Of a stretch of 64,000 nucleotides of DNA, positions 35,938 to 56,156 are shown piece after piece. The stretch is taken from positions 20,939 to 84,938 of the forward strand of contig JBDWCD010000010.1 in NCBI GenBank assembly GCA_039977975.1. Direction: 5' to 3'. Both the position numbers and the translations under genes were made by a program. Origin of the DNA: Rhizobiaceae bacterium. GTDB lineage: Bacteria; Pseudomonadota; Alphaproteobacteria; Rhizobiales; Rhizobiaceae. Each line of letters begins with the position of its first letter. Position 1 is the first letter of the stretch. The notes under the pieces are model-generated. The model did no database searches. It saw only the letters and a list, made by a program, of their open reading frames with translations, and was not told where the DNA came from.

Positions 35938-37249
35938 GGAGCTGGAATTTGCCAATGATCCCGCCGGAGCGGTGATCGCTACCACATCAACACCTGCATG
36001 GCGGGTGTTGCTGGCGATCGGCTGTCTGATATTTGTGGCGATTTACTGGGCCAGCGAGGCCGAAGTTGAGCAGGTCACGACGGGGCAGGGCAAGGTCATT
36101 CCGTCTCGTCAGATTCAAGCCGTCGAATCCTTCGAGCCAGGCATCGTGGCCGAAATCATGATCAAAGTGGGCGACAGGGTTTCACGAGGCCAGAGCCTGA
36201 TCCGCATCGATGACACCGGCGCCGCCTCCCGACTGGGCGAGTTGCGGCAGCGCCAGGCATCGCTGGCGGCAGAGAGAAACCGCCTGCGTGCCCAACTGAC
36301 CGGTGCTCAGACCTATGTGATCGAAGACGTTGAGGATGCCAATCTGCAGCGCTTTTATCTCGACCAGCAGGCCGTATTTGTGGCCAATCGCAGAAAGCTG
36401 GACGAACAAGCGGCGATCCGGCGTCAGCAATTGGCTCAGAAAGAACAGAGCCTGGCGGAGGCGATTGCCAGCACCAACAAGACATCGGGATTGTTGAACC
36501 TGGCTCGCAAGGAAGAAGAGCTGATTAAGCGGCTTTTTGCCAGGCGGGCGATTCCCGAGATCGACTTTATTCGCGTGCAGCGTGAAAGCGTCCAACTGGC
36601 CGGCGATCTGAAGATCTGGGAAGCCACCAAAGCACGCCTGCAGGCGGAGGTTGACGAGGCCCGCGCGCTGATCGGATCTGAGGAGGTCTCTTTTCGTTCC
36701 GAAGCCACCGCCAGACTGTCTATCGTCAACGCTGATCTGGCCATTGTGGAGCAGACTTTGAGAGCCGCCAGCGACACCGTCAGGCGTGCAATTTTGCGTT
36801 CTCCGGTCAACGGAATTGTCAACAAGGTTAACGTAGCGGCGGAAAATGAGGTGGTTCGGGCTGGTGACAGCGTGGTTGAAATCGTGCCAATCGATGACAT
36901 TTTGTTGATCGAAACCCAGATCAGACCGGAAGACATCGCCTTTATACGCGCCGGACTGAAAGCCACGATCCGAATCTCAGCATTTGACTATACCCGATAC
37001 GGAACCCTGCAGGGAACTGTCTTGAGAATCGGCGCAGACACCATAACCGACGAGAATCGTGAGACTTTTTACCAAATTGTGGTCAGTACCGACATCAAGG
37101 AAACGGTCCCCGGCGGGGCTGGTCAACTGGACATCATCCCCGGAATGGTGGCCACAGTTGACATTGCAACCGGCAAAAGATCGGTCCTGGAATATTTGAT
37201 GAAGCCGATACTGGTGATGAAGGACCGCGCTCTTAGAGATCCGCGTTAG
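35927..37249 (+). CDS. HlyD-family T1SS membrane fusion protein (LapC-like)
   Basis: GQGKVIPSRQIQAVESFEPG, long coiled coil, LRSPVNGIV, PEDIAFI, FDYTRYG, PGMVATVDI.TGKRSVLEYL.KP. Confidence 0.95.
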   Translation: MANEELEFANDPAGAVIATTSTPAWRVLLAIGCLIFVAIYWASEAEVEQVTTGQGKVIPSRQIQAVESFEPGIVAEIMIKVGDRVSRGQSLIRIDDTGAASRLGELRQRQASLAAERNRLRAQLTGAQTYVIEDVEDANLQRFYLDQQAVFVANRRKLDEQAAIRRQQLAQKEQSLAEAIASTNKTSGLLNLARKEEELIKRLFARRAIPEIDFIRVQRESVQLAGDLKIWEATKARLQAEVDEARALIGSEEVSFRSEATARLSIVNADLAIVEQTLRAASDTVRRAILRSPVNGIVNKVNVAAENEVVRAGDSVVEIVPIDDILLIETQIRPEDIAFIRAGLKATIRISAFDYTRYGTLQGTVLRIGADTITDENRETFYQIVVSTDIKETVPGGAGQLDIIPGMVATVDIATGKRSVLEYLMKPILVMKDRALRDPR

Positions 37250-37371
37250 CCATATGTAATCAATCGTCTTTTCACCGATGGACAATTTTACTGAATTATC
37301 ATAAGCTTTTGTTGGCACTTGGGGCAGAGCCATAGTTTTCAACCGACTACTTGTTCGGAGAAACTTGTGAT

Positions 37372-40300: not shown

Positions 40301-43300
40301 ATACTGCCGGGCTGACCGCAACACTGCCGCAGCTGGACGCAATGTTTACGCCACAAACTGCGACAGCGGTGGCCGGAGGCGCAAATACAGGAACCGTCAA
40401 TTGGACATTTGATTCATCCACTCTTCCCACGGCATTCAACTATCTCGCCGTCGGCGAAAGCCTGGTGCTCAACTATGAGGTTACGTTCAGCGATAATGGG
40501 GGCTCCGGCGCCTTAACCCATAATGTCGCGGTTACGATAAACGGCACCAATGACGGACCTACGATCACCGCAACCAATGGTGAGTTGCAGACGCGTGCCG
40601 AAGGTTCCACGGCGACTACAACGGGTTCATTCTCCGTTGAGGACCTTGACCACACCGATGTCGTCACGGTCTCCCAGGTCAAACTGATCACCGATTTGAA
40701 TGATGCCGACGAAGCGACGCCGGACCATGCCGCTTTGCTGGCGATGCTCAATGTGAATGCCGGCGATCCAGTTATCGCCAATGGTGCCACTACCGGTACG
40801 GTCAACTGGATTTTCGATCCCGATGGGTTTCCCGCACCGGGCACTCCAGACCCAGAGCTTTTCAGCTATCTGGCCGATGGTGAGGAACTCGAACTCACCT
40901 ATGAAGTTACAGTAACTGACAGCAATGGCGGCAGCGACACTCAACAGATCGTCATCACTGTTGTAGGTGGGAATAACGCCCCGCAGGCCGCATCTGATTC
41001 CGACGCCTTCGATGAAGGCGATACTTTGGCCACCAGCGGTTCCATTATTGTCACTGATTTGGATACCAGTGATGTTGTCAGTTTTGATCCCTCAGGCGTA
41101 ACGGTTGCTGTTGACGGGACCTATGCCGGTGTTGATCCGCTGACAATGTTCACACCGACATCCGGTGATGTTATTGGCGACAAATCTACCAGTGGCACCA
41201 TTGAATGGTCGTTTAATGCGGGCGGACAGTCGTTTGAGTATCTTGCCTCCGGCCAGGAGGTCGAATTCACCTATACGTTGCCATTGACCGACGGCAATTC
41301 GGGTGCGGCCGCACCTACTGTTGTGATCACCATCACAGGTACAGATGATGATCCATTTGTTTCCGCTGAAACGGGCTCGGCCCAGTCTCAGTTCGGTGAG
41401 CCGACAACACCGGCACTCGCCGGTTCCTTCACCATCAGCGATGTGGACACAACTGATTCTGTCAATATAGGTGAGATCACCGATGGCGCCGCTGCCGGAA
41501 CGGTGACGGTTACCACGTCCGGTCCGCTAAATTCGGGCGGGGAACCGACAGTCGATAAACTGGCCGACTTGCTCAGCTTCGGCGCAACACCGGTTGGCAC
41601 CGACAATCCCAACACCGTAAACTGGACCTTCGAGGTGCCAGCCGTCGACAATCCCTTTGAATATCTGGGCCTCGGCGAGAGCCTTGAGCTGACCTATAGT
41701 GTACCGTACAGCGACAGTGGGGTTCCGACTGGTACGTCGGATGTTCATGAAATTGTCATTACGGTCCACGGCACCAACAGCGGACCGGTCATCGTAGAAG
41801 CCGATTCCGGGCCGAATGTTATCAGCGCCACGATTGACGAAGACGCCGCGCTCACGGCAGTTGGAAAGTTCGGTGTCGAAGACGCAAATATCACTGATGT
41901 CCTGACAATATCCGAAGTTCGACTGATCACTTCGGGTGCCGACGGCCACGAGGCGACACCAGATCATGCCGACCTGCTGGCCATGTTCTCGACAGTCAAC
42001 AACACGCCAACGACAAACGAGATCAACTGGAACTTCAACGCCGTTGACCCCGATGCGTTTGATTATCTCAGCGGTATTACTGAGGACCTGATCCTTACCT
42101 ATACCGTTGTATTGGAAGACGGCAAAGGTGGCCGGATCACCGAAGATGTCGTTATCACTATCAACGGGGTCAACAATGTAACAACCGTCGACAACAGGAC
42201 AAACTCTGGTCTCGCACTGAACGAGACCGAAGGTGGTCTCATGACGATGGGCAGCTTTGATGTCCACGACGTCGACACCAGCGACATAATCGCGATCACC
42301 GGTGTGTCTGTCGATACTGCCGGAACTTCAGCTGGGGTGGTTTATCCACCTGGGACGAACATCACCACATTGCTGGAGGGGATGTTCTCGCAACAATCCA
42401 GCGCTGTGATCAGCAACACCGCCAATGATGGCACGGTGAACTGGGCGTTCAATGCCGGCCACGACGCCTTTGACTTCCTTGCCGCCGGTCAGGACCTGGT
42501 TGCCACCTATACCGTCACTCTAACAGGCGGTGTGACAGAGACCGTCGTGATCACGATCAGCGGCACCAACGATCTGCCCTTCGTCTCCGCGACAGGCGTT
42601 GTCGACGCTACGCTGTCGGAAACGTCGTTGCTGTCGAGTTCGGGCACGTTTGACGTCACTGATGTCGACCTCCCGGACGTGGTTTCTGTTGATACTATAA
42701 CCGTTACAACGTCAGGCGATGTCGGTGGCACGGCTCCCAATGGAGTACCGGATGGTACAGCACTATTGGCAATGTTTTCAACGACATCGTCCACTGCAGT
42801 CGCCGCTGGAACAGATACCGGTACGGTAGCCTGGGACTTTGACGGCACAACCACAGCAAATGCCTTTGAATATCTTGCCGCCGGTGAGAGTGTTGTCCTG
42901 ACTTATCACGTGCCGTTCAGCGATGCTGATGGTGGTGGATCGCAAGATATCGTGATTACCGTCACTGGTACCAATGATCTGCCATTTGTATCCGCAACCG
43001 GGACTGTCACAGACACGCTGTCTGAATCCTCGCCTCTGTTAAGCACCGGGACATTCGATGTCACCGACGTCGATACGTCAGATGAGGTATCGGTTGACGC
43101 AATAACGGTGGTGCCGTCAGGAGACCTTGGCGGCGTTCCATCAAATGCGGCGCTTTTGGCAATGTTCTCGACGGTTTCTGCCATAGCGGTCACCGATACT
43201 CAGGACGTTGGAACGGTCACCTGGAACTTTGACGGCACCACGACGCCGGGAGCCTTTGACTATCTGGCGGCTGGCGAGAGCCTGCTTCTGACCTACACTG

Positions 43301-46300
43301 TGGCGCTGGACGACGGCAATGGCGGCACCACCAGCCAAAACGTCACGATTACTGTGGATGGCGTCAACGAGGGGCCAGCTCTAGCGACGACCGGAAATGT
43401 TGTCTCAGCAGGGCTCACCGAAGGTGGCATGCTGATGGCGAACGGAGTGTTTGGCGTCACCGATTCCGACACAAGCAACACGGTCCAGACACTGAACAGT
43501 GGCGCGGATCTTGTAACCGTCAGTGCTGTCGGCGACATAGGCACGCTGACCAATGCTGACCTGCTCAACATGTTCACGCCGGAAATCGGCACGATTGTTG
43601 ACGGCACTTCAAACAGTGGTACGGCAAGCTGGTCGTTTAACGCTGGCGACGAAACCTTTGGCTATCTGTCTGATGGCGAAACCCTCGTTGTGACCTATTC
43701 CATTCCGGTGGAGGATTCGACCGGTGCGTCCTTTATGCAATCCGTTGATATCACCATCACAGGCGTCAATAATGCGCCATCGGTGATTGCCAATCCTCTG
43801 TTTGCCTCGGCATTTGACGGATTGGCGGCTCAGGATACGGGCGGTGCAGGCAATCCCTATGTCACACAGTTGCTGACCAATGACGGGGCCAACAATTTTG
43901 TAGTCACCCAGCCAGGCACCCCTGCGGTCCGGGCTTCAGATATCGCCCTGGGTGACTTCGACAATGACGGCGATCTTGACGCCTTTACAGGGGTCTATTT
44001 CGGCGACGGCCAGTTGATGATTAACCAAGGCGGCGCACAGGGCGGCGTTGAGGGCGTATTCAACACATCTACCTTTGTGCAGGGCTCACTGAACAGCCTG
44101 GGTGGATTCGATCCGACCTACACATTGGACGTTGAGATCGGCGACGTAACCGGCGACGGCTTTGTCGACATCCTGATTGCCAATTGGAACGGTCAGGCCA
44201 ACCAGTTGCTGACCAATGATGGTGCCGGTGGATTTGCGGTGAGCGTCCTGCCTGGTGGAAGTCTTAGCACGCGCGATATCCGGCTTGGTGATATTGATGC
44301 CGATGGTGATCTTGACGCCATCCTGACAACCGATAACGGCACCAATCAATTGCTGACGAACCTGGGCGGAACCCAAGGTGGGACGGAAGGCACTTTTGCT
44401 GCTTCGTTCTTGCCGTCCGCCGTTAATCAGTTAGCAAGTCTCAGTGTTGGCATCGATATCGGAGATGTGAACGGTGACGGACATCTCGATGTTCTCATCG
44501 CCAGCACCCTGGATCAGAACGAATTGTTGCTGGGCAACGGCGCCGGAGGATTTACTACGGGCGTTCTGGCAGGTGGCAACCGCGACAGCACGTCGATTCG
44601 ACTGGGCGATCTGGATGGCGACGGGGATCTGGATGCCTTTGTCACCAATATTGATGGCCAGGCCAATCAGGTTCTGATCAACCAGGGCGGCACACAGGGT
44701 GGCACACTGGGGACATTCGTCGCCAGCGACGTGGCCGGAGGTAACCAAAACAGTTCAGCAGTCACCCTGGTTGATGTCGATCAGGATGGTGATCTGGACG
44801 CGATTGTCAGCAATAACGACTATTCGCCTATCGTTGATCAGACCAACAAATTACTGATCAATGACGGAACCGGCGTGTTCACGGCAATCACCCTGCCTGA
44901 CGGGAATATGCCAACCAACAACATTGCCATTGGCGACCTGGATGGTGATGGAACGGTGGCTGCGGTCAACGCGGACGGCCTGCCGAACCTCTACAGCGGT
45001 CTCAATGTCGGCATCCTGGTGCCTGAACTGGCCGCAACACTCACTGAAACCGGTGCAGGACTAAGCACCAGCGGTTCGTTCCTCGTTTCAGATGGCGATG
45101 CCGGAGAGACGATTTCTCTGACCGCAGGGTTGGCGGTTTCTGAGTCCGGTACCACTGCCGGATTGGGATTGAATAATGCTCAATTGCTGGCCTTGTTCTC
45201 GCCAGCAATTGCCGCAAATCAGGTTGACTGGACATTCGATTCGTCCGCCCAAGGGAACGCATTCGACTATCTCAACAGCGGCGAAAGTCTGGTTCTGACC
45301 TATACAGTGCCGTTCCAGGACAACAGTGGTTCAGCCACTGCTGCCGGCGCTCAGGATGTGGTTATCACCATCAATGGCATTAACGATGTTATTGCCTATG
45401 CTGCACCAGATGCGTCCCCCACAACTGGCCAGTTCGTTATTGAAGCAGGTGATGATGACGCTGGCACACCAACACTTGGCACGCCTGCTGCGGCCGGCGG
45501 GACGTTTGCAACCGCCAACCCGGCGGACCCAGCGACAGTCGTCTGGACTCAGACCAGCGCTACTGACACCTATGGTTCATTTACTCTCGATGCAGCTGGT
45601 AATTGGGGTTACAGCATCGACAACGCGTTGGGTGTTACTGAAGCTCTTTCAGAGAACCAGGTTGAAACTGAAACGCTGGAAGGCTCAGTCACTTATAATG
45701 AAGTAAAGACCACGAGCTTCTCAATTGCGGTCACCGAAACGAACCTCGGTGACATTCTGATAGAACCAGTCGACGAATTCCCTGCAGTCGACCTTGCCTT
45801 TGATGGTGTATTCACCCACCTCACCGAGTCGGAATCGGCAGGCACAATTACTGTTATTGGAACCAATGGCACGCTGGAACTGACGGTCGCTACCGGTGCC
45901 TGGACCTTCACTCCCTTCGGTGGAGCCCCAGCCAGCTACAGCGAAAATTTCGATTTTGACTATGCCTACACATCAACGACCACCCACACTGAACCCGTAA
46001 GCCAGACTGTAGATGTTCACGGCACTAATGATGGGCCGGAAATTGTTCTGGGTCCAACGGACACCGTCATCAGCGGTTCAGTGACCGAGGATGCCGGTAC
46101 GCCAACGACGGTTTCCGGTGGACTTTCAGCTACAGATGATGATTCAGACGCCAGCCTGGTCTGGACGGTTGATAACGGTTTTGGAGCCTTTGGCAATCTG
46201 GTTGTTAATGACACCAATGATGGGTGGACATACACGCTCGACGACAGCAACCCTATCGTCAACGGATTAGCTGCTGGTGATCCAGCGCTGACCGACACAT

Positions 46301-49300
46301 TCAATCTGAGGGTGACCGACAATCACGGCGCCACGCAGACGCAGGTCGTGACCATCACGATAAATGGCGCTGACGATCAACCGGTCTTCAACGTTGCCGC
46401 CTCTGATCTCAGTGGGACAGTTGTTGAGCAGGACGAGAATATCGTAGCAACACCTGTTTTCGGCGGCATTGCAGGCCTTACTGTTGATCCAACCTCAGAC
46501 TTTTCGCTGGCCAATGCCCAGATCGAAACAGGAACTTCATCGGATGCAACAGACAATGTTGTAAATGGTCCTGTTGGCTCCCTGTTAGCCTACACAGCAA
46601 CTGGGTTGACGAGCGGAGAGGGAAGCGCCCCCGGGCATCCCGGCTTTGGTGGCACAGATTATGATCTTTTCAACCTGAACGACGGTGACGCGAACTCAGC
46701 AGGCGGTGATGGATTCCATGCGATTCCAAATGCCGGCGCCAATTCCCTCGTGCTCGATCTGGGATCAGAACAGACCATATATTCGATTGCTATCTATAAC
46801 GGTTACACCAATAGAGACGACGGCACCTATACGTTGAAAGATGGTGACGGCAACATCTTGGGTAATTGGACCATATCCGGCACCCCCCTTCCTGGCGCCC
46901 CTAACAACCCAGTGCATTCCTTCTGGCTTACCTTCGACCAGCCGGTGACCACCGACACATTGGTTTTTGACACCACAACCACCGACTTTGACGGCGGTCA
47001 GCACACCAACAGCTACCGCGAAATCGAAATTTACGGCGTGCCGCCACTGACGGAGAGCGGCGAGATTGCCTTCAACGATGTCGATACTGACGTAGCGCTG
47101 CTTACTGTGGGTACGATAACCGCGTCTGTCGGTGCGTTGGGTGTTTTGGAAGCCACTATCGACGCGCCAGACAGTGAAATCGATTGGAGCTATTCTGTTC
47201 AGCTTGAGGACATTCAGTATCTGGCGCACGGCGAAACCAAAGTCGAAACGTTCGAGATTCCACTTTTCGATGGGACAAATACAGTAACCGAGACGGTGAC
47301 CATTACCCTGAAGGGCACCAACGATGATCCATTTGTCTCATCAACTGGCGTGATCAGTGGAATTCTGGGTGAAGATAGTTCGCTGGCGGCCGCAGGTTCT
47401 TTCCAGGTCACCGATGTTGATCTGCTCGATACAGTTTCCACCGGTGCAGTGACCGTTGCTGCCACCGGTGTGACCGACGGCATGCCTGCGGCAACACAGA
47501 CTGCTCTTGCAAGCATGATGATGCCGGTGACCGGCACCTCCGTGATCGATGGTTCGACGACAGTTGGCACGGTCAACTGGAGTTTCGATGGCTCCGGCAG
47601 TTCCTTTGACTACCTTGCCAATGGCGAGAGCCTTATCCTCACCTATACGATTCCGTTTACCGACGGCATGGGTGGGGACGGTTCACAGGAAGTGGTTATT
47701 ACCATCACCGGCGCTGACGACGCGACAAGCGTGACCAATACGGCAACACCATTGAACCTCGACGAGACCGAAGGTGCTCTGGGCCCGTTTGCCGGCTCCT
47801 TTACCGTCGATGATGACGATGTCAGCGGCCTGGTGATTATCTCTGACGTCAACGTGACAACCACGGGGTCGACTGCCACTGCGCTGCCCGCCGATATCTT
47901 GACCATTCTGGATGGCATGTTCACCGCGACGCCGGAAACGGTGATTGACGGCACTTCGGTCATGGGAACTGTCAACTGGACGTTCGATGCAGGTACCGAT
48001 GCGTTTGACTTCCTCGGTGTAGGCGAGGTTTTGACAGCAAACTTTACTGTTCAAATGATCGGTGCCACCGACCAGACAATCGTCGTCAACATTACCGGAA
48101 CCAACGAAGCGCCATTGGTCAGTATGGCAGACAATGCAGGCGATCTGTTGACCGATGAAGGCCGCAACCTGGTGGAAACCGACAGCGCGCTGACAACAAG
48201 TGGTTCCTTCGAAATTACCGATCTCGATGTCACCGACACCGTGGATGTGGGAGCTGTAGTTGTCGCAACGACATCCGGCACAACAACTGGTCTTCCGATA
48301 AATACCGATCTGGCAAACATGCTGGTTCCAACACCGACGACAGATGTTGTCGATGGATCATCCACCACCGGAACAGTCGACTGGACCTTCACCTCCGGTG
48401 CCGCAGATTTCGATTATCTGGCGGCAGGTCAGACGGTCACCATTGTCTATACAATACCGTTTACTGACGGCAATGCTGCAGGCAGCGAAACGGTCACCAT
48501 CACGGTCAAGGGCACCAATGATGTCCCAACGATCACTGGCGTCACCGGTGATGAGCAGACCATGGTCGAGAGTGCCACGGCGGTATTGGAGGGAACCATA
48601 GGGGTCTCCGATGTCGACATCACCGACGCTGTTTCAATTTCTGATGTGCAACTTGTAACGACTGGCAATGACGGCGATCCCGCTACGCCGACGCCGGCGA
48701 TACTTCTGGGAATGTTCACACCCAAGACCGGGATAGAAGTCGCGTCGGGTAGCACGACCGGAACCATCGATTGGGACTTTGACCCAGGCAGCAATAATTT
48801 TGATTATCTTGCCCCTGGCGAAGACCTGGTGCTCACCTACACGATCGTCCTGGACGACGGTAATGGCGGCACAGTCAGCGAAGAGGTCGAGATCACCATC
48901 CAGGGCGGCAATAACGGCCCGACTGTCTCGGTGCAGACCGATGTTGCAGAAACATTCACCGAAGCTCCCGACCTGCAGACCACCGGTTCCTTTGTCCTGT
49001 CCGATCTGGATACGTCTGATGTGGTCATGGTCACGGGCGTCACCGTAGCAGCAGTCGAATCCAATCCGGTCGCCCTCAATCCGGCCACACCACTGCTGGC
49101 AGATCTGGATGATATGTTCGTGCCGCAATCGGCAACCATTGTTGATGGGGTCTCCAATACTGGCACCGTCTTCTGGTCTTTCAATGCCAATGGTGAGTCC
49201 TTCGCTTATCTCGCCGACGGAGAAAGCCTGGTTGTGACCTATAGTGTTGCGTACCAGGACGACAATCTCGCAACTGGGTCGCAGGACGTGACCATCACCA

Positions 49301-52300
49301 TCAACGGCACCAACAGCCTACCGGTGGTAACCAGCGACACCAATCCGACACCGGTTCTGACTGAAACCGACGCCGGTTTGATGACAAGTGGCGTCATCAG
49401 TTTTGCCGATGTGGACACTACCGATATTGTCACCGTTTCGACGCCGGTGAGCTTTGCCAGGGGTGGAGACGTGGCCGGAATTCCGGTAAGCGACGCTCAA
49501 CTGACTGCGATGTTCTCGCTTGCGTCCACTTCAGCAATTACCGATACGCAGACCACCGGCACAGTCGGATGGACGTTTAATTCTTCAACGCATCCCGCTG
49601 CCTTCGATTATCTGGCAGTCGGCGAAAGCCTGGAACTGACCTATACCGTGACTTTCGCCGATGACAGCGGTTCCGGCGATCAAACTCACGATGTTTTCAT
49701 CACCATTAACGGCACAAATGATGGTCCCGAATTCACCGCAGTTATTGGAGATGACACGCCGGACTTCACCGAGGGCCCGGTTCCGGCCTCCGCCAGCGGT
49801 TCGTTTGTGTTTACCGACGCTGATGCATCGGATGTGGTGACGATCACCGAAGTGCGGGTGATGACAGGCCTGGTCGACAATGATGGCGCCACACCGAACG
49901 CGACAGCACTGCTCGGCATGTTGAATGCGGTTACTGCCGTGGATAATTCGGGAGCTGAACCGGTCCACACGGTCGACTGGACGTTCACGCCAGGCACCAC
50001 TTTCGAATATCTGGCCGACGGCGAGATGCTGACGATCAACTACGAGATCATTATCGACGATGACAATGGCGGTACCGCCAGCGAGAACGTTGCCGTGACG
50101 ATCATCGGAACCAATAGTGCGCCGATTGTCAGCGCCCTGACCGATGTTGATGAAACACTTTCGGAAACGTCTCCGTTGAACACCACCGGTTCCTTCGAAC
50201 TGACCGATGTGGATACGACAGACGAAGTCAGCATCGATAGTGTGGACGTTGTCACGTCAGGTGATGATGGTGATCTGGCAACGCCATTGCCAGCAGCCCT
50301 TGGCCCGATGTTTGTTACCCAACTTGGTACGGTCATCGATGGTGCGTCGAACACTGGGGTCGTCAACTGGTCGTTCAACGCCAATGGGGAAACGTTTGAC
50401 TATCTGGCTGTCGGCGAAACGTTGACCATCGATTACACGGTGAACTTCTCCGATAACCATTCGACACCAGCGACCGGATCACAACTTGTCCGCATCATGA
50501 TCACCGGAACAAACGATCTGCCGGTGATTACCGCCACTACCAACGCGACACCAACGCTGATCGAAACCAATGCAACGCTGGTGACTGACGGATCGATCGA
50601 CTTTGCAGACGCCGACACCAGCGATGAAGTGACGATTACCAATGTTGCGGTGGTTGAGTCGGGTGCGATTGCCGATCTTCCACCGGGTCTCGATCTCGGC
50701 GCAATGTTCAGCCTGGTTTCGACAGATGCGGTTGCTGTCGGTGCCAATACAGGCACTGTTGAATGGGATTTCAGTTCCGGCGCAGAAGTGTTCAACTATC
50801 TGGCCGTTGGTGAAAGTCTGGTTCTCACCTACACGCTCACCTTCAGCGATGGCACCGTTGCGGGAACATTCACCGAAGATGTGGTTATCACCATCAATGG
50901 CACCAATGATGGCCCGACCATCTCCAACGTCAGCGGTGACACTTTTGCCATGTCTGAGGGGACTTTGGCCCCGGTCATCGGAGACTTCGACGTCACCGAC
51001 CTGGATGTGTCAGATGTCGTTTCCGTCCGCGAAGTGCTGCTGGAAACATCCGAGCTGGACGGAGCGCAGGCAACGCCAGACACAATCGATCTGATTGCGA
51101 TGTTCACGCTGGTGCCCGGCAATGCGATCGAGGACACCACCACGACAGGTGATGTTAACTGGACCTTCAACCCTGGCAGCGAGACATTTGAATATCTTTC
51201 CGTCGGTGAAAGCCTGGTTCTGACCTATACGATTGTCCTGGAAGACCATAATGGCGCAACGGTCAGCCAGAATATCGAAATCACCATCAATGGCAGCAAC
51301 AATGCGCCAACGATCACTGCGACGACCTTTGTCAGCGACACGATGGACGAGACCGACGGCGTGCTGGCAACCTCTGGCTCATTCGATATCCAGGACGTCG
51401 ACACAACCGACGAAGTGACCGTTTCCGACGTCGAAGTCCTGACCGATGACATCACCGGATTGGTGCCATCCGATATTGACTTGCTGGCGATGTTCTCACC
51501 GGATTCAGGGCAGTTGGAAATCGATGGCGATAATATCGATGGAACCGTTTTCTGGGCCTTCAATGCCGGTACTGAGGCTTTTGACTATCTGGGCGATGGT
51601 GACAGTCTTGAACTTACCTATCGGTTGACCATTGAGGACGACAACGGCGAATTCACCAAGCAGGATGTGGTCCTGACCATTAACGGCACCAATGACAGTG
51701 CAGTCATTGGCGGTGATCTCACAGGAGCCGCCGCCGAAGACAGCGGCATAATTCTGACTGGCAGAGTTACAGCCACCGATCTTGATAATCCCGACAATAT
51801 GTTTGTAGCCGACTCTGGGGACGCCACCTTTGGCAGCTATACCATCGATGTGGACGGCAACTGGACTTATACGCTGGATGACGGCAATCCACTGGTTGAC
51901 GGGCTGACCTTGGTCAGTGATGCGATCACCGATAGCTTCACCGTAACTTCAGAAGATGGCACAACAGAAACTGTTGAAATCAGCATCACCGACGATCCAC
52001 TGGTGGGTACACCGGCTGGTGAAACCATCATAGGTGGTCTGAATGACGATATCATTCTGGGGGGTGCCGGTGGTGACACGCTGTTCGGCGCAGCCGGCAA
52101 AGATTTGCTCAATGGTGGTGAAGGCAATGACTTTTTGCAAGGCGGTGGCGGTGCCGATATCTTCCAGTTTACCGATCTGAACCTTTCACTCGACGAGGTG
52201 GTGGACTTTGAATATGAGGTCGACAGCTTGGATTTGGACGCCTTGTTGGATGCGGGCATGACCGCGACTGTGAGTGAAACTGAGTCCGGTGGCCAGGTCA

Positions 52301-52440
52301 CGGGTGTTTCGATATTCGTAGAGGAGACGCCTGGATCTCCAACCCAGATTGCTGATGTTACATTTGCCACTTCAATTGACAGTGCCACATTCGACAGCGA
52401 AGCATTGTTTGCGGCAAATAACGGGGCGGTGACATCCTGA
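37372..52440 (+). CDS. Giant T1SS-secreted RTX/VCBS adhesin (~5,022 aa)
   Basis: Uninterrupted 15-kb ORF with a GGAG RBS before the ATG at 37372. No signal peptide; strongly Asp/Thr/Gly/Val-rich and depleted in Lys/Arg/Cys. FecR-like N-terminus, VCBS-type repeats, C-terminal RTX nonapeptides; directly follows the T1SS genes. Confidence 0.93.
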   Translation: MAVGNNTSGGTLPQSIRGDSTDSTRVVEADEGRLIIDNPELLFLGDFERQGDDLSISYGGETNLVIGYFANGTPANLEALNGAYLTAQAVNSLTGDPTAGQYAQAGGGGEPLQIGKVVKLEGSASTTSVSGTKNELEVGSPVFQGDVVETGADSSLGISFVDETVFSMSSDARMILDELIYDPANVENSSMAFNLVQGAFVFVTGEIAPTGNMAIETPVATMGIRGTTPRVVVNTALGVTEFTILPDPGSENVGSYTIVNKATGAIMGSVTAVADKWVVTGAFSDAVKITKSGLDLLEDQLALDEITDIFNRAASDRAELDGSTNYTNVAIDLSGGDDGEAGDDLAGDDGGTDVSVGVEDTPNQDDPPIAFDDDLFTDDSSPITVNLNVITGNNGQGVDIDPEGFPIILTQINGRNLSFVDGEAKFILPSGAVIKVTNNGGITYFPNEAYKFLGLGNVDIDQFEYTIQDQGGQTDRGVISVSLTGRNQQPLVLNVGSRDLSDTVIEGDDTGNAAPSLIAAGQLVISDPDASDQHSSVVVSDSVSWEKSDGTTDTSLGEVGSVALDLQESMQDDSPNLVFDLIQTNPPQPGVYGPLVSRPEEIRGTVDWTWTGSEADIDFLGVGEILTLVYEVTVTDDSGVGGGSEPASVTQLITIVLVGTNDGPTISSIVNASPDRDENELGPTIGSFEVTDVDVTDVVSITDVRLVSAENDGNQETPDPADLLDMFSPRSGDTISSGATVGTVNWQFTPNGETFDYLADGESLELTYAITLDDGKGGTVTQDIVVTINGLNDDPFTSDETDVDDSLSEISSLKTAGSFEVTDLDTSDTVSISGVTVATSEDDSDSALPNNGVLLAMFTPQSGTIIDDGSTVGVVNWSFNANGSNFDYLSSTEQLVLTYTVTFEDNSAAGASQATQLVEITITGTNSDPIVTGSTIAVSPLIETNDPLITTGTISFADTDTSDVVSITQIDVTTAGDTAGLTATLPQLDAMFTPQTATAVAGGANTGTVNWTFDSSTLPTAFNYLAVGESLVLNYEVTFSDNGGSGALTHNVAVTINGTNDGPTITATNGELQTRAEGSTATTTGSFSVEDLDHTDVVTVSQVKLITDLNDADEATPDHAALLAMLNVNAGDPVIANGATTGTVNWIFDPDGFPAPGTPDPELFSYLADGEELELTYEVTVTDSNGGSDTQQIVITVVGGNNAPQAASDSDAFDEGDTLATSGSIIVTDLDTSDVVSFDPSGVTVAVDGTYAGVDPLTMFTPTSGDVIGDKSTSGTIEWSFNAGGQSFEYLASGQEVEFTYTLPLTDGNSGAAAPTVVITITGTDDDPFVSAETGSAQSQFGEPTTPALAGSFTISDVDTTDSVNIGEITDGAAAGTVTVTTSGPLNSGGEPTVDKLADLLSFGATPVGTDNPNTVNWTFEVPAVDNPFEYLGLGESLELTYSVPYSDSGVPTGTSDVHEIVITVHGTNSGPVIVEADSGPNVISATIDEDAALTAVGKFGVEDANITDVLTISEVRLITSGADGHEATPDHADLLAMFSTVNNTPTTNEINWNFNAVDPDAFDYLSGITEDLILTYTVVLEDGKGGRITEDVVITINGVNNVTTVDNRTNSGLALNETEGGLMTMGSFDVHDVDTSDIIAITGVSVDTAGTSAGVVYPPGTNITTLLEGMFSQQSSAVISNTANDGTVNWAFNAGHDAFDFLAAGQDLVATYTVTLTGGVTETVVITISGTNDLPFVSATGVVDATLSETSLLSSSGTFDVTDVDLPDVVSVDTITVTTSGDVGGTAPNGVPDGTALLAMFSTTSSTAVAAGTDTGTVAWDFDGTTTANAFEYLAAGESVVLTYHVPFSDADGGGSQDIVITVTGTNDLPFVSATGTVTDTLSESSPLLSTGTFDVTDVDTSDEVSVDAITVVPSGDLGGVPSNAALLAMFSTVSAIAVTDTQDVGTVTWNFDGTTTPGAFDYLAAGESLLLTYTVALDDGNGGTTSQNVTITVDGVNEGPALATTGNVVSAGLTEGGMLMANGVFGVTDSDTSNTVQTLNSGADLVTVSAVGDIGTLTNADLLNMFTPEIGTIVDGTSNSGTASWSFNAGDETFGYLSDGETLVVTYSIPVEDSTGASFMQSVDITITGVNNAPSVIANPLFASAFDGLAAQDTGGAGNPYVTQLLTNDGANNFVVTQPGTPAVRASDIALGDFDNDGDLDAFTGVYFGDGQLMINQGGAQGGVEGVFNTSTFVQGSLNSLGGFDPTYTLDVEIGDVTGDGFVDILIANWNGQANQLLTNDGAGGFAVSVLPGGSLSTRDIRLGDIDADGDLDAILTTDNGTNQLLTNLGGTQGGTEGTFAASFLPSAVNQLASLSVGIDIGDVNGDGHLDVLIASTLDQNELLLGNGAGGFTTGVLAGGNRDSTSIRLGDLDGDGDLDAFVTNIDGQANQVLINQGGTQGGTLGTFVASDVAGGNQNSSAVTLVDVDQDGDLDAIVSNNDYSPIVDQTNKLLINDGTGVFTAITLPDGNMPTNNIAIGDLDGDGTVAAVNADGLPNLYSGLNVGILVPELAATLTETGAGLSTSGSFLVSDGDAGETISLTAGLAVSESGTTAGLGLNNAQLLALFSPAIAANQVDWTFDSSAQGNAFDYLNSGESLVLTYTVPFQDNSGSATAAGAQDVVITINGINDVIAYAAPDASPTTGQFVIEAGDDDAGTPTLGTPAAAGGTFATANPADPATVVWTQTSATDTYGSFTLDAAGNWGYSIDNALGVTEALSENQVETETLEGSVTYNEVKTTSFSIAVTETNLGDILIEPVDEFPAVDLAFDGVFTHLTESESAGTITVIGTNGTLELTVATGAWTFTPFGGAPASYSENFDFDYAYTSTTTHTEPVSQTVDVHGTNDGPEIVLGPTDTVISGSVTEDAGTPTTVSGGLSATDDDSDASLVWTVDNGFGAFGNLVVNDTNDGWTYTLDDSNPIVNGLAAGDPALTDTFNLRVTDNHGATQTQVVTITINGADDQPVFNVAASDLSGTVVEQDENIVATPVFGGIAGLTVDPTSDFSLANAQIETGTSSDATDNVVNGPVGSLLAYTATGLTSGEGSAPGHPGFGGTDYDLFNLNDGDANSAGGDGFHAIPNAGANSLVLDLGSEQTIYSIAIYNGYTNRDDGTYTLKDGDGNILGNWTISGTPLPGAPNNPVHSFWLTFDQPVTTDTLVFDTTTTDFDGGQHTNSYREIEIYGVPPLTESGEIAFNDVDTDVALLTVGTITASVGALGVLEATIDAPDSEIDWSYSVQLEDIQYLAHGETKVETFEIPLFDGTNTVTETVTITLKGTNDDPFVSSTGVISGILGEDSSLAAAGSFQVTDVDLLDTVSTGAVTVAATGVTDGMPAATQTALASMMMPVTGTSVIDGSTTVGTVNWSFDGSGSSFDYLANGESLILTYTIPFTDGMGGDGSQEVVITITGADDATSVTNTATPLNLDETEGALGPFAGSFTVDDDDVSGLVIISDVNVTTTGSTATALPADILTILDGMFTATPETVIDGTSVMGTVNWTFDAGTDAFDFLGVGEVLTANFTVQMIGATDQTIVVNITGTNEAPLVSMADNAGDLLTDEGRNLVETDSALTTSGSFEITDLDVTDTVDVGAVVVATTSGTTTGLPINTDLANMLVPTPTTDVVDGSSTTGTVDWTFTSGAADFDYLAAGQTVTIVYTIPFTDGNAAGSETVTITVKGTNDVPTITGVTGDEQTMVESATAVLEGTIGVSDVDITDAVSISDVQLVTTGNDGDPATPTPAILLGMFTPKTGIEVASGSTTGTIDWDFDPGSNNFDYLAPGEDLVLTYTIVLDDGNGGTVSEEVEITIQGGNNGPTVSVQTDVAETFTEAPDLQTTGSFVLSDLDTSDVVMVTGVTVAAVESNPVALNPATPLLADLDDMFVPQSATIVDGVSNTGTVFWSFNANGESFAYLADGESLVVTYSVAYQDDNLATGSQDVTITINGTNSLPVVTSDTNPTPVLTETDAGLMTSGVISFADVDTTDIVTVSTPVSFARGGDVAGIPVSDAQLTAMFSLASTSAITDTQTTGTVGWTFNSSTHPAAFDYLAVGESLELTYTVTFADDSGSGDQTHDVFITINGTNDGPEFTAVIGDDTPDFTEGPVPASASGSFVFTDADASDVVTITEVRVMTGLVDNDGATPNATALLGMLNAVTAVDNSGAEPVHTVDWTFTPGTTFEYLADGEMLTINYEIIIDDDNGGTASENVAVTIIGTNSAPIVSALTDVDETLSETSPLNTTGSFELTDVDTTDEVSIDSVDVVTSGDDGDLATPLPAALGPMFVTQLGTVIDGASNTGVVNWSFNANGETFDYLAVGETLTIDYTVNFSDNHSTPATGSQLVRIMITGTNDLPVITATTNATPTLIETNATLVTDGSIDFADADTSDEVTITNVAVVESGAIADLPPGLDLGAMFSLVSTDAVAVGANTGTVEWDFSSGAEVFNYLAVGESLVLTYTLTFSDGTVAGTFTEDVVITINGTNDGPTISNVSGDTFAMSEGTLAPVIGDFDVTDLDVSDVVSVREVLLETSELDGAQATPDTIDLIAMFTLVPGNAIEDTTTTGDVNWTFNPGSETFEYLSVGESLVLTYTIVLEDHNGATVSQNIEITINGSNNAPTITATTFVSDTMDETDGVLATSGSFDIQDVDTTDEVTVSDVEVLTDDITGLVPSDIDLLAMFSPDSGQLEIDGDNIDGTVFWAFNAGTEAFDYLGDGDSLELTYRLTIEDDNGEFTKQDVVLTINGTNDSAVIGGDLTGAAAEDSGIILTGRVTATDLDNPDNMFVADSGDATFGSYTIDVDGNWTYTLDDGNPLVDGLTLVSDAITDSFTVTSEDGTTETVEISITDDPLVGTPAGETIIGGLNDDIILGGAGGDTLFGAAGKDLLNGGEGNDFLQGGGGADIFQFTDLNLSLDEVVDFEYEVDSLDLDALLDAGMTATVSETESGGQVTGVSIFVEETPGSPTQIADVTFATSIDSATFDSEALFAANNGAVTS
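37711..38230 (+). other. FecR-like / retention-module-like domain of the adhesin
   Basis: IGKVVKLEG..GSPVFQGDVVETGADSSLGISFVDETVFSM...LVQGAFVFVTG...IETPVATMGIRGT. Domain boundaries are approximate. Confidence 0.8.
43939..44952 (+). repeat. Seven FG-GAP repeats (probable 7-bladed beta-propeller)
   Basis: GDFDNDGDLD, GDVTGDGFVD, GDIDADGDLD, GDVNGDGHLD, GDLDGDGDLD, VDVDQDGDLD, GDLDGDG. Confidence 0.85.
46441..47040 (+). other. Discoidin/F5-8 type C (CBM32-like) domain inserted in the adhesin
   Basis: LNDGD...LVLDLGSEQTIYSIAIYN..R...TFDQPVTT..L...SYREIEIYG pattern. Confidence 0.6.
52006..52440 (+). repeat. RTX Ca2+-binding nonapeptides and C-terminal T1SS secretion signal region
   Basis: GGLNDDIIL GGAGGDTLF GAAGKDLLN GGEGNDFLQ GGGGADIFQF, then D.VVDF....D.LDL..LL. 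Confidence 0.92.
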
Positions 52441-53795
52441 TGCAACGACGGTTATTGGGCCATGTCGGTAGGGGCGTATTGGCGCTTGTGTTGATCACCT
52501 GTTTGAGTCTGACAGCCAGAGCGGCCAACAATGAGGCTGTTGGCTTGGCGCTCAAGGAATTGATTTCAAATCCAAATTTGAAAACCGGATCGGCTACCGC
52601 TGACGCAAATATCGCTGATATCAAAGCCTTTTATGCCAGCCGCAGTTTCAAGCCGATCTGGAGCCGCGACACCGGTCCCAAGGGCAAGGCCAAGGCGCTT
52701 CTGGGAGAGCTGAAAGCATCCACCGTCCATGGCCTGTTGCCGGACTTCTACGGGGTTGGCGAAATCGCAAATCTGATGAAAAGTCTGGAACCCGCCGACC
52801 TGGCGCGCATGGATTTTCTATTCTCCGGCGCGCTGGTGGATTTCAGCCATGACCTGCTCAACGGTCGGCTGACCAATCTGGCAAGCTATGAGCGCAACCG
52901 CGTTGACCCGGTCCGACTGGACCCGGCTGCACTCATTGAAAAAGCTGCAGCGGCCGGCAATCTGCGCACCATGTTGGCTGAGATTGTAGGCGATGACCGG
53001 CGTTACCTGCGGCTGGTCGCCAAAATGATTGAATATGTGCGTCTGGAACAATCCCGCCACTGGCCGACAAAGATCGGCAAAGCGGATTTCGCCAAACTGC
53101 GCCGCCTGTTGGCACTGACCGGCGATTTGCCCTTTGATCAGATGACTAAGAAGGGTCCCATTGATGCCACGCTCAGCGACGCTATCCGTTCCTATCAGGG
53201 GCGCATGGGTCTGCAGGCTGACGGCAAGCTGGGACCCGCAACTCTGGAAGAGCTGAACACGCCGTTAAGCGCGCGCATTCAGCGCATCAAAGTCAATCTG
53301 GAACGCCGCCGCTGGCAAAACCGCGCCACCGATCAAAAACTGTTCTACCTGAACATGGTTGATGGGCAGTTGAAGCTGACCATCAATGACAAGACCCGAG
53401 CTTTGACCGGTGTATCACTGGGCGAGGCACAGCATAAACTGCCGACCTTTTATGGCACGATCACCGGTGCCAGATCATCGGATTCAAATGGGCAGGGCAA
53501 TGTTGAGCTGGTTTACGATGCCGGCGAGAGTGCTGGTGATGGTCTGCGTTTCGGCAGTCTGGTGCTGAACGATGGCAATCAAGGCGCCATCACTTTGCTG
53601 GAAGAAGCCATCGATGCCACTGACAAAGCCGCATTGGCAGAATTCAAGTCGAATGGCGGCGAGTTGAAACTCGCCAGGCCCATCGACCTGTTTGTCACCT
53701 ATCTGACCGTTTGGGCGACTCGCAACGGCAAGATTCAGTTTCGCCCGGACATATTTCAGCGCGACGCCAAAGTCATTGATGAACTGGGGCTTTAG
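52440..53795 (+). CDS. YcbB-type L,D-transpeptidase homologue lacking the catalytic motif
   Basis: Signal peptide; scaffold FYASRSFKPIW..HGL.P..Y; PG-binding AIRSYQGRMGLQADGKLGPATLEELN; NLERRRW; C-terminal TYLTVW...G.IQFRPDIFQRD. No HxxxxxxxSHGC motif and no Cys in the mature protein. Confidence 0.8.
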   Translation: MQRRLLGHVGRGVLALVLITCLSLTARAANNEAVGLALKELISNPNLKTGSATADANIADIKAFYASRSFKPIWSRDTGPKGKAKALLGELKASTVHGLLPDFYGVGEIANLMKSLEPADLARMDFLFSGALVDFSHDLLNGRLTNLASYERNRVDPVRLDPAALIEKAAAAGNLRTMLAEIVGDDRRYLRLVAKMIEYVRLEQSRHWPTKIGKADFAKLRRLLALTGDLPFDQMTKKGPIDATLSDAIRSYQGRMGLQADGKLGPATLEELNTPLSARIQRIKVNLERRRWQNRATDQKLFYLNMVDGQLKLTINDKTRALTGVSLGEAQHKLPTFYGTITGARSSDSNGQGNVELVYDAGESAGDGLRFGSLVLNDGNQGAITLLEEAIDATDKAALAEFKSNGGELKLARPIDLFVTYLTVWATRNGKIQFRPDIFQRDAKVIDELGL

Positions 53796-53817: not shown

Positions 53818-54228
53818 TCATCTTAGGATATGAACCGCACATTTGGCGTGACGCACGACCCGCGCAGCAGTGGAACCGAGGAAATAGTCCTCCAATCCCG
53901 GCTTGTGCGAGGCAATAACGATGCAATCGGTATTATGTTCCTCGCCATAGTCCAATATGGCCCGGCTTGAATGGCCCTTGATGACGTCGCTGTGGGCGCT
54001 TGGCTGATACTTGGCGACAAATTCCTTGATGCCCTTTTGGGCAGATTTGACCGAATTGGCCCAGACTTCCTTGGGAATCATTGTCGCGGCATAGGAAGGA
54101 ATTTCTTCAACCACATGCAACAGCGTTACTTTGCCATTTTCTGCGAGAAGCTCATTGGCCACGGCCAGCGCCTTTTCCACGGCTGGCTCGTGCTCAAAGA
54201 CCACGGGGACAAGAATATTGGAATACAT
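53818..54228 (-). CDS. Universal stress protein
   Basis: MYSNILVPV, DCIVIASHKPGLEDYFLGSTAARVVRHAKCAVHILR. Confidence 0.93.
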   Translation of the reverse strand: MYSNILVPVVFEHEPAVEKALAVANELLAENGKVTLLHVVEEIPSYAATMIPKEVWANSVKSAQKGIKEFVAKYQPSAHSDVIKGHSSRAILDYGEEHNTDCIVIASHKPGLEDYFLGSTAARVVRHAKCAVHILR

Positions 54229-54349: not shown

Positions 54350-55054
54350 TCAGTCGCGCAGGGTCAGCCGGTCGCCACGCTTTTCGTAAGAGTGGAGCGA
54401 CTCTAAAAACTGCTGGCCCAACAGGCTTTTGCCCAGTCTGCCAGGTTCGGCGACCAGCACATTCATGCCGCGCCGTTCGATGCCACCAAGATAGAAGTGA
54501 TCAATCCGTGCTCTCGCCGCGCGCCCGGTACCATTGGCGGTCTGGGTGCGGATTGAATAGCTGAGATCGTCGACCCCGATCCCGGCCGCACGGGCGTCAT
54601 CATAGCTGAGCACGATTGAACTGGCGCCGGTATCGACAAGAAAGCGGATGCTTTGTTCATTGACCCCGGCAGTGGCCTCAAAATGACCATTGTCAGCCCG
54701 GATCAGCGTCACAATCCGGCGTCCGCTGTCGTCGGTGGCCGAAATCGGGCTGCCGGGAATGACACCACCGCTGAACCGCGAGGCGATGTCCTGCAGGTCA
54801 AACCGGAACACATAGGCAGCCATCAGTGCCAGGATGATCAGGATCCATATGCCGATCTGCTTGATGGTTTCCCAGATGCCGGTGCCGCGGCCAAACACCG
54901 CCGAACCGATCAGCAAGGCCCACAGGGCAGATACCGCCGCTGTTCCGATCCGGTTGCTTTCAAAGCCCAGGGTCGTGCCGGTATCGCCACTGGCGATCAA
55001 CAGGATCAGCACCAGGCCCATCAGGCCGACAAGAACCCAAAAAAAACGGCCCAT
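54350..55054 (-). CDS. TIGR02281-type clan AA (retropepsin-like) aspartic protease
   Basis: N-terminal TM segments; ADNGHF, FLVDTGAS, TQTANG, SLLGQQFL. Confidence 0.9.
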   Translation of the reverse strand: MGRFFWVLVGLMGLVLILLIASGDTGTTLGFESNRIGTAAVSALWALLIGSAVFGRGTGIWETIKQIGIWILIILALMAAYVFRFDLQDIASRFSGGVIPGSPISATDDSGRRIVTLIRADNGHFEATAGVNEQSIRFLVDTGASSIVLSYDDARAAGIGVDDLSYSIRTQTANGTGRAARARIDHFYLGGIERRGMNVLVAEPGRLGKSLLGQQFLESLHSYEKRGDRLTLRD

Positions 55055-55319: not shown

Positions 55320-56156
55320 TTACATAGTCCAAACCAGGCCCAGCAAAAGCCCCAATTCCGACAATTGTTGCGTCGCACCTAAAGTATCACCGGTGTGACC
55401 ATCAATGTGATGCTTACACAAGGCGATTACCGCCATCACCGCCAATTGCAGCCCGGCCAGTGCGATCAGTGTAGAAAACAGGCCGCAGACCCACAACAGT
55501 AACAGAACCGCGGGCAGGGCGGCCAGACTGCCCCAAATCAAGGTGTCGGTGTCAGGCACACCATAGCGGGCAGAAAGCCCTGACAGCTGTTTTTCACCTG
55601 TTTGGGGAACAACCTCCGTGTCATCATCAGAACTTGGGCGCGCGGGCAGCAACAGCGTCCAGGGTTGCAATATGGCCGCCCGGCTCAAACTGGCACTGGT
55701 CAGCACGACCAGGGCTGCCGCAAGTCCGCCCACGGAATCGATCAGATAGGTGAGCAGGACGACCCGCAACAAGATGGTGACCACCAGGCCGAGCACCCCA
55801 TAGGTGCCGATCGTGCTGTCGCGCATGATATCCAGCTTGCGCTGCCGGCTGTGGCCGCCCCAGAATCCGTCGACAGTATCGGCCAGCCCGTCTTCATGCA
55901 GCGCGCCGGTGATAATGACCATAGTGGCGATGCTCAAAAGAGCCGAAACACTGGCTGGCATTCCGGTGGCGAAAGTTATCCACAAAATCAGTGCAGCGGG
56001 CAGGGCAATGATAAGTCCGGCAAATGCAAAGCAACGCGAAGACTGAGAGAAGTCGGGCAGGGCAGTTTGTGCAGAATAAGACATCGGTAGTCGCGACAGA
56101 AACAGAACGCTGCTGCGCGTGTCTGCAATTAATCCCTGAATCACGTTGACCTCCAA
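55320..56156 (-). CDS. cobS: Adenosylcobinamide-GDP ribazoletransferase
   Basis: FLSRLP, TGALHEDGLADTVDGFWGG, LDIMRDSTIGTYG, GHTGDTLGA. Confidence 0.95.
   Translation of the reverse strand: MEVNVIQGLIADTRSSVLFLSRLPMSYSAQTALPDFSQSSRCFAFAGLIIALPAALILWITFATGMPASVSALLSIATMVIITGALHEDGLADTVDGFWGGHSRQRKLDIMRDSTIGTYGVLGLVVTILLRVVLLTYLIDSVGGLAAALVVLTSASLSRAAILQPWTLLLPARPSSDDDTEVVPQTGEKQLSGLSARYGVPDTDTLIWGSLAALPAVLLLLWVCGLFSTLIALAGLQLAVMAVIALCKHHIDGHTGDTLGATQQLSELGLLLGLVWTM

Follow-up and report, generated by a model that had tools for sequence, protein, structure and literature searches.

A YcbB-type protein without an active site, encoded directly behind giant RTX adhesins, is a probable wall-linked accessory of type 1 secretion

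Why would a protein built like a cell-wall cross-linking enzyme, and stripped of its active site, be encoded directly behind a giant adhesin? The question is raised by a 64,000-nucleotide stretch of DNA from a Rhizobiaceae bacterium (assembly GCA_039977975.1, contig JBDWCD010000010.1, positions 20,939 to 84,938), hereafter the window. Its plus strand carries a five-gene operon in the order TolC, ABC, HlyD, adhesin and an open reading frame (ORF) at 52440-53795, which encodes a 451-residue YcbB-type L,D-transpeptidase (LDT) homologue with the catalytic core deleted. We call this protein pLDT, for pseudo-LDT. The assignment comes from the ORF itself, Pfam matches, homologues, an AlphaFold2 model and Foldseek comparisons. 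pLDT has lost its catalytic site, its family has a single origin and is under purifying selection, and the gene is found in strict synteny with the adhesin. In all related genomes open to checking, an adhesin of the same kind precedes the pLDT gene; pLDT therefore probably serves in the periplasm as a helper without enzymatic activity, fastening the adhesin or its secretion channel to the cell wall. Unless stated otherwise, all features described below are on the plus strand.

pLDT starts with a Sec-type signal peptide (residues 1-29, 52440-52526). It was read from the sequence and shows an RR n-region, a hydrophobic core and the ending ARA, followed by AN. The sole cysteine of the protein, C21, lies within this peptide. 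A lipoprotein anchor through C21 was considered and rejected, because LITC is a poor lipobox and the cysteine is not conserved in the homologues. No transmembrane anchor was found in pLDT, and its Pfam matches are Scaffold and PG_binding_1 only. The Scaffold domain (PF20142; residues 60-195, 52617-53024) scores 86.8 bits for a cut-off of 24.6 (E = 2.8e-24). It is the most conserved part of the pLDT family, with the lowest ratio of nonsynonymous to synonymous substitutions (dN/dS) and the most invariant columns. The peptidoglycan-binding domain (PG_binding_1; residues 236-272, 53145-53255; Pfam E = 1.1e-7) carries the canonical D261. A central helix containing the invariant stretch NLERRRW (53295-53315; invariant columns N286, E288, R289, R290, R291 and W292) joins the scaffold, the peptidoglycan-binding domain and a remnant of the catalytic domain. 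Invariant residues that are specific to the family include D77, E90, N141, D186, R188, R191, K195, N286, E288 and R290. This remnant (residues 296-451, 53325-53792) was delimited from alignments, AlphaFold2 secondary structure and dN/dS. It keeps the first strands as well as the C-terminal strands and helix, and lacks the capping subdomain and the strands that bear the histidine and the cysteine. A variable segment of about 29 poorly conserved residues (348-376, 53481-53567), with the lowest column conservation of the alignment (0.29), replaces about 110 residues of E. coli LdtD, roughly 420-530.

The AlphaFold2 model of pLDT, run on the family alignment, has a mean predicted local distance difference test (pLDDT) of 92.8 and a predicted template modelling score of 0.87. 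It displays a helical bundle, a three-helix peptidoglycan-binding domain, a long central helix and a small beta-sheet domain. The only strong Foldseek matches in the PDB are V. cholerae LdtA and the YcbB proteins of E. coli, C. rodentium and S. Typhi. The matches to 7ajx, 6ntw and 7aj9 (E values of 4e-13 to 3e-11, template modelling scores of 0.55-0.65) indicate that the overall three-domain fold is kept. The first-pass annotation of this DNA had described an intact ORF, a mature protein free of cysteine, and a retained scaffold, peptidoglycan-binding domain and set of terminal catalytic-domain strands. This description agrees with the 451-residue reading frame, with the position of C21, and with Pfam, a phmmer search of the PDB and our alignments.

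The whole active site has been removed from pLDT. The YkuD catalytic domain (PF03734) is not found by Pfam at E <= 0.01, and the NCBIfam equivalog model of LdtD (NF007891) gives 35.9 bits for a cut-off of 425. In the phmmer search, YcbB and LdtA are matched only over the peptidoglycan-binding domain and the C-terminal strands, residues 397-445. E. coli ldtD was then fetched and aligned with family members and true LDTs. The columns of Trp425 (in the NPxWxVP motif of the capping subdomain), Tyr507 and His509 are gaps in all members of the short family. At the Cys528 column, the window protein has a serine and its relatives a threonine, glutamate or aspartate; the Arg530 column holds valine, alanine or serine. 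About 100 residues carrying Trp425, Tyr507, His509 and Cys528 of E. coli LdtD are thus missing, and the active-site motif H-X15-18-[S/T]-X-G-C-h-[R/N] is absent from pLDT in the alignment. In E. coli YcbB, the catalytic domain spans residues 375-576, the capping subdomain residues 422-495, and the catalytic dyad is His509/Cys528 (PMC6478713). The deletion therefore covers both the capping subdomain and the dyad region. Alignment and structure model together bear out the loss of the active site, including the missing NPxWxVP and SHGC segments and the shortened catalytic domain that had been noticed at first reading. Judged from its sequence, pLDT cannot form peptidoglycan cross-links and cannot be a transpeptidase. 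Two true YcbB-type LDTs are encoded elsewhere in the same genome, so that wall cross-linking is covered.

pLDT is not a singular case. A search of 5.8 billion proteins returned about 55 short homologues of 424-471 residues with the same architecture and 33-63% identity. Next in the same search come true LDTs, 500-600 residues long and at most 34% identical. Outside the pLDT family, the closest sequences belong to true LDTs of Hyphomicrobiales. When 1.84 billion cluster representatives were searched exhaustively with a profile, about 23 clusters, counted at 50% identity, matched full-length in one stretch at 384-633 bits; after a drop in score come fragments and true LDTs whose match is split in two. 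Going by these searches, pLDTs form a discrete, small family. The mature protein has no cysteine in 52 of 54 aligned members. The 58 genomic loci that we collected are bimodal: short ORFs have neither [ST]HGC nor cysteine, and ORFs of 540-613 residues have SHGC and exactly one cysteine. Deletion boundaries are identical across the family. In a maximum-likelihood tree, one branch parts 30 pLDTs from 19 LDTs with a support of 100/100, consistent with one loss event.

Could the missing catalytic core simply reflect a decaying LDT pseudogene, or an assembly artefact, without function? Comparative data refute this view, which is almost certainly wrong. Intact ORFs are found in more than 30 genomes at 33-63% identity, and the family is a single deep clade with a confidently predicted fold and the same boundaries of the deletion throughout. 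By the Nei-Gojobori method, applied to pairs with unsaturated dS (0.5-0.9), dN/dS is 0.08-0.17, far below 1, as expected for purifying selection and not for decay. By region, values are 0.04-0.16 for the scaffold, 0.07-0.18 for the peptidoglycan-binding domain and 0.05-0.25 for the remnant domain. Of 24 other genomes from the genus of the window, 7 have the gene, and each copy is of the short form (450-475 residues, 45-58% identity); an intact enzyme at the same position was looked for and none was seen among these same-genus genomes. Recent decay and misassembly, which had been named at the outset as ways in which the reading could fail, are ruled out by these short forms and by the dN/dS values. 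The comparisons thus indicate that the loss of the active site is old and conserved, not a recent decay. Separately, some loci from metagenome-assembled genomes have frameshifted pLDT genes or interrupted adhesin ORFs (L007, L038, L053, L057, L020 and L027), and two have pLDT fragments at contig ends (L049 and L051). Such defects probably arose during assembly, because the adhesin genes are repetitive, and the genes concerned are probably not true pseudogenes.

What does the family travel with? Genomic context was analysed by tblastn, using the window's type 1 secretion system (T1SS) proteins and pieces of its adhesin against all loci with 10-kb flanks. Upstream DNA could be read in 34 short-family loci, among them four with frameshifted copies, and in each of these adhesin sequence directly precedes pLDT. 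The gene order is TolC-ABC-HlyD-adhesin-pLDT wherever the 10-kb flank is long enough to show it. By contrast, none of about 20 true-LDT loci has any adhesin or T1SS gene. The suggestion that Cys-less homologues sit specifically behind T1SS adhesins thus holds for every informative locus. In one locus (L011), the three T1SS genes are convergent on the other strand and the adhesin and pLDT genes are still adjacent. Because only this adjacency is kept there, pLDT would seem to belong with the adhesin rather than with the transport genes. Across pLDT loci, the adhesin ranges from about 1,650 to 5,029 residues. Carriers are mostly metagenome-assembled genomes of marine or saline Hyphomicrobiales, plus a few isolates. 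The cultured carriers are the isolate of the window, Mesorhizobium sp. KR9-304 and M. quangtriensis VNQ89.

The first-pass annotation had also proposed that pLDT is translationally coupled to the adhesin. In the window, the adhesin stop and the pLDT start do overlap by one base (TGATG at 52438-52442, in the context tccTGAtgc). Among 30 related loci, about 6 junctions overlap or abut and nearly all others have a gap of 3-40 nucleotides, so that an overlap or a gap of at most 40 nucleotides is found in about 28 of the 30. Thus, tight operon linkage is conserved and stands; the overlap itself, present or abutting in only about 6 of 30 loci, is not conserved. A scan for promoters and terminators around the pLDT gene gave no signal above chance. 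The other genes of the operon are typical of type 1 secretion: a TolC-family outer-membrane channel (32250-33680; Pfam OEP and TIGR01844, above cut-off), an ABC transporter of the LssB type (33733-35937; TIGR03375, 799 bits, above cut-off, and Pfam), a HlyD-family periplasmic adaptor (35927-37249; TIGR01843, 345 bits, above cut-off, and Pfam) and the giant RTX adhesin of 5,029 residues (37351-52440; likely start ATG 37372).

At its N-terminus, the adhesin has a conserved module with a FecR-like and a putative RIN-like domain; FG-GAP, VCBS and cadherin-like repeats are also present. RTX and VCBS repeats mark its C-terminus, and the dedicated genes for TolC, ABC transporter and membrane fusion protein adjoin it. 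Residues 1-330 (37372-38360) are the best-conserved part of the adhesin, with a mean column identity of 56% over 17 loci, and include the invariant stretch TPVATMGIRGTTP. This N-terminal module is more conserved than the other accessory parts of the operon. Pfam identifies the FecR-like domain in this head; the NCBIfam model retention_LapA (NF033682) gives 20.8 bits, below its cut-off of 50. An AlphaFold2 model of the N-terminal 393 residues has a mean pLDDT of 49. The better-predicted part of this low-confidence model matches 5ix9 in Foldseek (E = 8.7e-5, 37% identity, root mean square deviation of 0.8 Å over 62 columns). The 5ix9 entry covers the RIN plug domain, a periplasmic part of the adhesin MpIBP of M. 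primoryensis, and has also served as template for modelling the LapA retention module (PMC5550230, 10.1101/198937). Because of this match to the model, the adhesin is probably of the retained type, with its N-terminus staying in the periplasm. This is where a Sec-exported pLDT would meet it, and the putative RIN-like plug would give pLDT a periplasmic target to bind. Genes of the BTLCP family (LapG-like, PF06035) are present in the genome only at 985-1464 of the window's contig (C10:985-1464, about 20 kb before the window start) and at C6:226857-227291, and neither adjoins the operon. No TAAG-like dialanine site was seen by eye in the first 400 residues of the adhesin.

Taken as a whole, the explanation that we regard as best, at somewhat better than an even chance, is that pLDT is a periplasmic pseudo-enzyme and a dedicated accessory of the adhesin and its T1SS, bracing the retained adhesin against the wall. 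pLDT would descend from a YcbB/LdtD-type LDT of Hyphomicrobiales by one ancient deletion. This event would have removed the capping subdomain and the strands bearing the catalytic tyrosine, histidine and cysteine, and left the Scaffold, the three-helix peptidoglycan-binding bundle and a small beta-sheet remnant. The protein would be made from the adhesin transcript, immediately after the adhesin, exported by Sec and devoted to the adhesin/T1SS unit. It would then make two contacts. The peptidoglycan-binding domain would hold the sacculus, and the strongly conserved Scaffold surface would hold a periplasmic part of the system. The scaffold of YcbB has been proposed to bind partner proteins, namely PBP1b and PBP5 (PMC6478713). 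For pLDT, the best candidate partner would be the conserved N-terminal plug module of the adhesin in the periplasm; the TolC tunnel and HlyD are alternative candidates. As an outcome, the outer membrane would no longer be the sole support of the retained adhesin, which would also be braced by the wall. A non-catalytic wall anchor or adaptor for the channel or the adhesin had already been put forward in the first-pass annotation. Periplasmic location, peptidoglycan binding, the partner and the effect on retention are what we infer for pLDT. A more precise and tentative version, which we hold possible and rather doubtful, makes pLDT a fifth structural component of T1SS adhesins: a wall-bound clamp whose Scaffold grips the N-terminal plug and passes pulling force to the sacculus. 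In a stronger form of the clamp reading, pLDT would offer the N-terminus of the adhesin to a true LDT, which would then link it covalently to peptidoglycan.

Several observations weigh against the bracing explanation. The first concerns the wall contact. D261 of the window protein aligns with Asp337 of E. coli YcbB, whose replacement abolishes YcbB function in vivo (PMC6478713). This canonical aspartate is kept in 12 of 54 members, the window protein included, and is replaced by threonine, serine or asparagine in the other 42. About 12 members fall below the Pfam threshold of PG_binding_1. Since the canonical residue is mostly replaced, peptidoglycan binding may be altered or remodelled, or may not be the core function of the family. 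In 40 of the 54 members, an aspartate is found four residues later instead, which turns DGxxG into [TSN]GxxD (residues 261-265, 53220-53234). Q253, R255 and G257 are invariant in the domain, and almost every member has an acidic residue at one or the other of two nearby positions. The alignment suggests a shift of the acidic residue by four positions, not its loss. A further difficulty comes from the distribution of the adhesin. Among 400 genomes sampled evenly across the order, none but the window's own has a pLDT, and the other matches are all true LDTs. About 35 of these 400 genomes carry giant adhesins with the same N-terminal module (38-47% identity) and have no pLDT. pLDT is thus not needed for secretion or retention in general, and the view that it is an essential component of this adhesin type was rejected, since the same adhesin head occurs without it across the order. 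The wider cluster consists of adhesin, T1SS and CHASE2 cyclase, and pLDT is an optional extra found in one of its sub-lineages. Nor do evolutionary distances single out the adhesin as the partner. In a mirror-tree analysis, pLDT distances correlate alike with those of the adhesin N-terminus (r = 0.79-0.85), HlyD (0.85-0.92) and the ABC transporter (0.95), which shows only that the operon is inherited as a unit. Finally, the RIN-like match of the adhesin head comes from a model of low confidence.

Part of the same evidence can be read in other ways. pLDT could be a local regulator or recruiter, its Scaffold binding penicillin-binding proteins or true LDTs and bringing them to, or blocking them around, the channel, so that the target would be the wall machinery. 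The proposed contacts of the YcbB scaffold with PBP1b and PBP5 (PMC6478713), the fact that Scaffold and central helix are the most conserved parts of pLDT, and the dispensability of the canonical peptidoglycan-binding residue in most members would fit. However, a general wall regulator has no reason to sit always right after the adhesin, nor to stay with it when the T1SS genes move, and gain or loss of this rare family goes with gain or loss of the operon. We consider this role unlikely. A secretion or folding helper without a wall role, acting as a chaperone for the adhesin N-terminal module under TolC, would explain production immediately after the adhesin and the concentration of conservation in the scaffold; the peptidoglycan-binding domain, with its degenerate canonical residue in most members, would be vestigial. 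This domain is nonetheless still under purifying selection, with dN/dS of 0.07-0.18 in the closest pairs, and it keeps its invariant residues as well as, in nearly all members, the nearby acidic residue, which makes a pure chaperone quite unlikely.

The third alternative starts from the CHASE2 adenylate/guanylate cyclase, a conserved neighbour of the adhesin cluster. pLDT could bridge the FecR-like adhesin head and the CHASE2 domain, and a cyclic nucleotide would report the occupancy or tension of the adhesin. The cyclase follows the adhesin directly in 7 of 8 fetched clusters that lack pLDT (L076 and L080-L085), and in five loci it stands directly after pLDT, in convergent orientation (L021, L026, L028, L038 and L057). 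Moreover, LysM-FecR proteins of Burkholderia pair with CHASE2 kinases (PMC5192318). Against this, many genomes have the cyclase working alongside the adhesin without any pLDT, and the window homologue (29762-31987, minus strand; assigned by Pfam and by synteny in other loci) is divergent and located upstream of TolC, its coding sequence ending about 20 kb upstream of pLDT. A signalling role of pLDT itself is thus improbable, and bracing of the retained adhesin remains our preferred explanation. By analogy with LapD/LapG, the CHASE2 cyclase and the FecR-like head suggest a cyclic-nucleotide circuit that may read the state of the adhesin with other parts. In this type of adhesin cluster, the neighbouring cyclase has about 750 residues and ends in PPPxxWDGV[WF]xxxxK. 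On the other side of the operon, downstream of pLDT, the minus strand encodes a universal stress protein (53818-54228), a retropepsin-like aspartyl protease (54350-55054) and CobS (55320-56156). These three genes are syntenic only in the closest relatives (L001-L003 and L007), and are therefore not part of the adhesin system.

How does pLDT compare with known systems? With YcbB/LdtD of E. coli (6NTW) and LdtA of V. cholerae (7AJ9/7AJX) it shares the signal peptide, the Scaffold domain, the PG_binding_1 three-helix bundle, the central helix, the first strands of the catalytic sheet and the C-terminal hairpin and helix. Unlike these enzymes, it lacks the capping subdomain and the strands of Tyr507, His509 and Cys528, with no conserved nucleophile in their place; its family also stands as a separate clade, with a fixed genomic position behind a T1SS adhesin. 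A functional parallel is found in SiiA, which with SiiB belongs to the T1SS of Salmonella pathogenicity island 4: SiiA is a peptidoglycan-binding accessory for the giant adhesin SiiE, and this binding is needed for adhesin function (10.1101/641415). Both would be extra operon-encoded proteins dedicated to a giant-adhesin T1SS, if pLDT binds peptidoglycan as its domain predicts. SiiA is an inner-membrane, MotB/OmpA-like protein working with a MotA-like proton channel and pLDT a predicted soluble, periplasmic YcbB derivative; the two are not homologous. No MotA-like gene is found in the window operon, and the likeness to SiiA is a functional analogy only.

The operon also resembles the two-step T1SS of LapA and MpIBP. 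It has dedicated genes for TolC, ABC transporter and membrane fusion protein, C-terminal RTX repeats and a putatively RIN-like N-terminal module, and in those systems periplasmic proteins act on the retained adhesin N-terminus. It differs in that no LapG or LapD gene is seen beside it, PF06035 genes being found only elsewhere in the genome and no search aimed at LapD having been made. In place of the LapG protease, the accessory here is a non-catalytic, putative wall binder, and the neighbouring sensor is a CHASE2 cyclase. Catalytically dead homologues of wall enzymes are used as regulators or adaptors in other settings, as with the degenerate-LytM proteins EnvC and NlpD. These resemble pLDT in having the fold of a peptidoglycan enzyme, a lost active site and continued selection, and differ from it in fold and partners. 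The Burkholderia BiofilmReg operon likewise combines a peptidoglycan-binding module, a FecR-like periplasmic module and a CHASE2 sensor (PMC5192318). Here, in contrast, the FecR-like module is the head of a secreted adhesin, the peptidoglycan-binding domain is borne by a separate YcbB-derived protein, and the sensor is a cyclase instead of a kinase.

Our literature searches found neither an LDT without active site nor an LDT-like protein in T1SS adhesin operons. pLDT is an uncharacterised pseudo-enzyme derived from the YcbB family, and its fixed association with T1SS adhesins is new. In public annotations, pLDTs are called 'peptidoglycan-binding protein' or, at JGI, 'murein L,D-transpeptidase YcbB/YkuD'; in calling them transpeptidases, the JGI label is wrong.

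On the current view, a plug under TolC keeps retained RTX adhesins hanging from the outer membrane, and the shear resistance of such long fibres is largely unaddressed outside the SiiAB case. A conserved YcbB derivative without active site, travelling only with one type of adhesin, suggests that type 1 secretion can include a bracing or adaptor step linked to the wall. The L,D-transpeptidase fold would also join the folds of wall enzymes from which non-catalytic binders have evolved. If the clamp or the presentation to a true LDT proved correct, pLDT would be the first case of an LDT fold reused as a non-catalytic anchor for a secretion system. The bracing hypothesis is directly testable in the cultured carriers.

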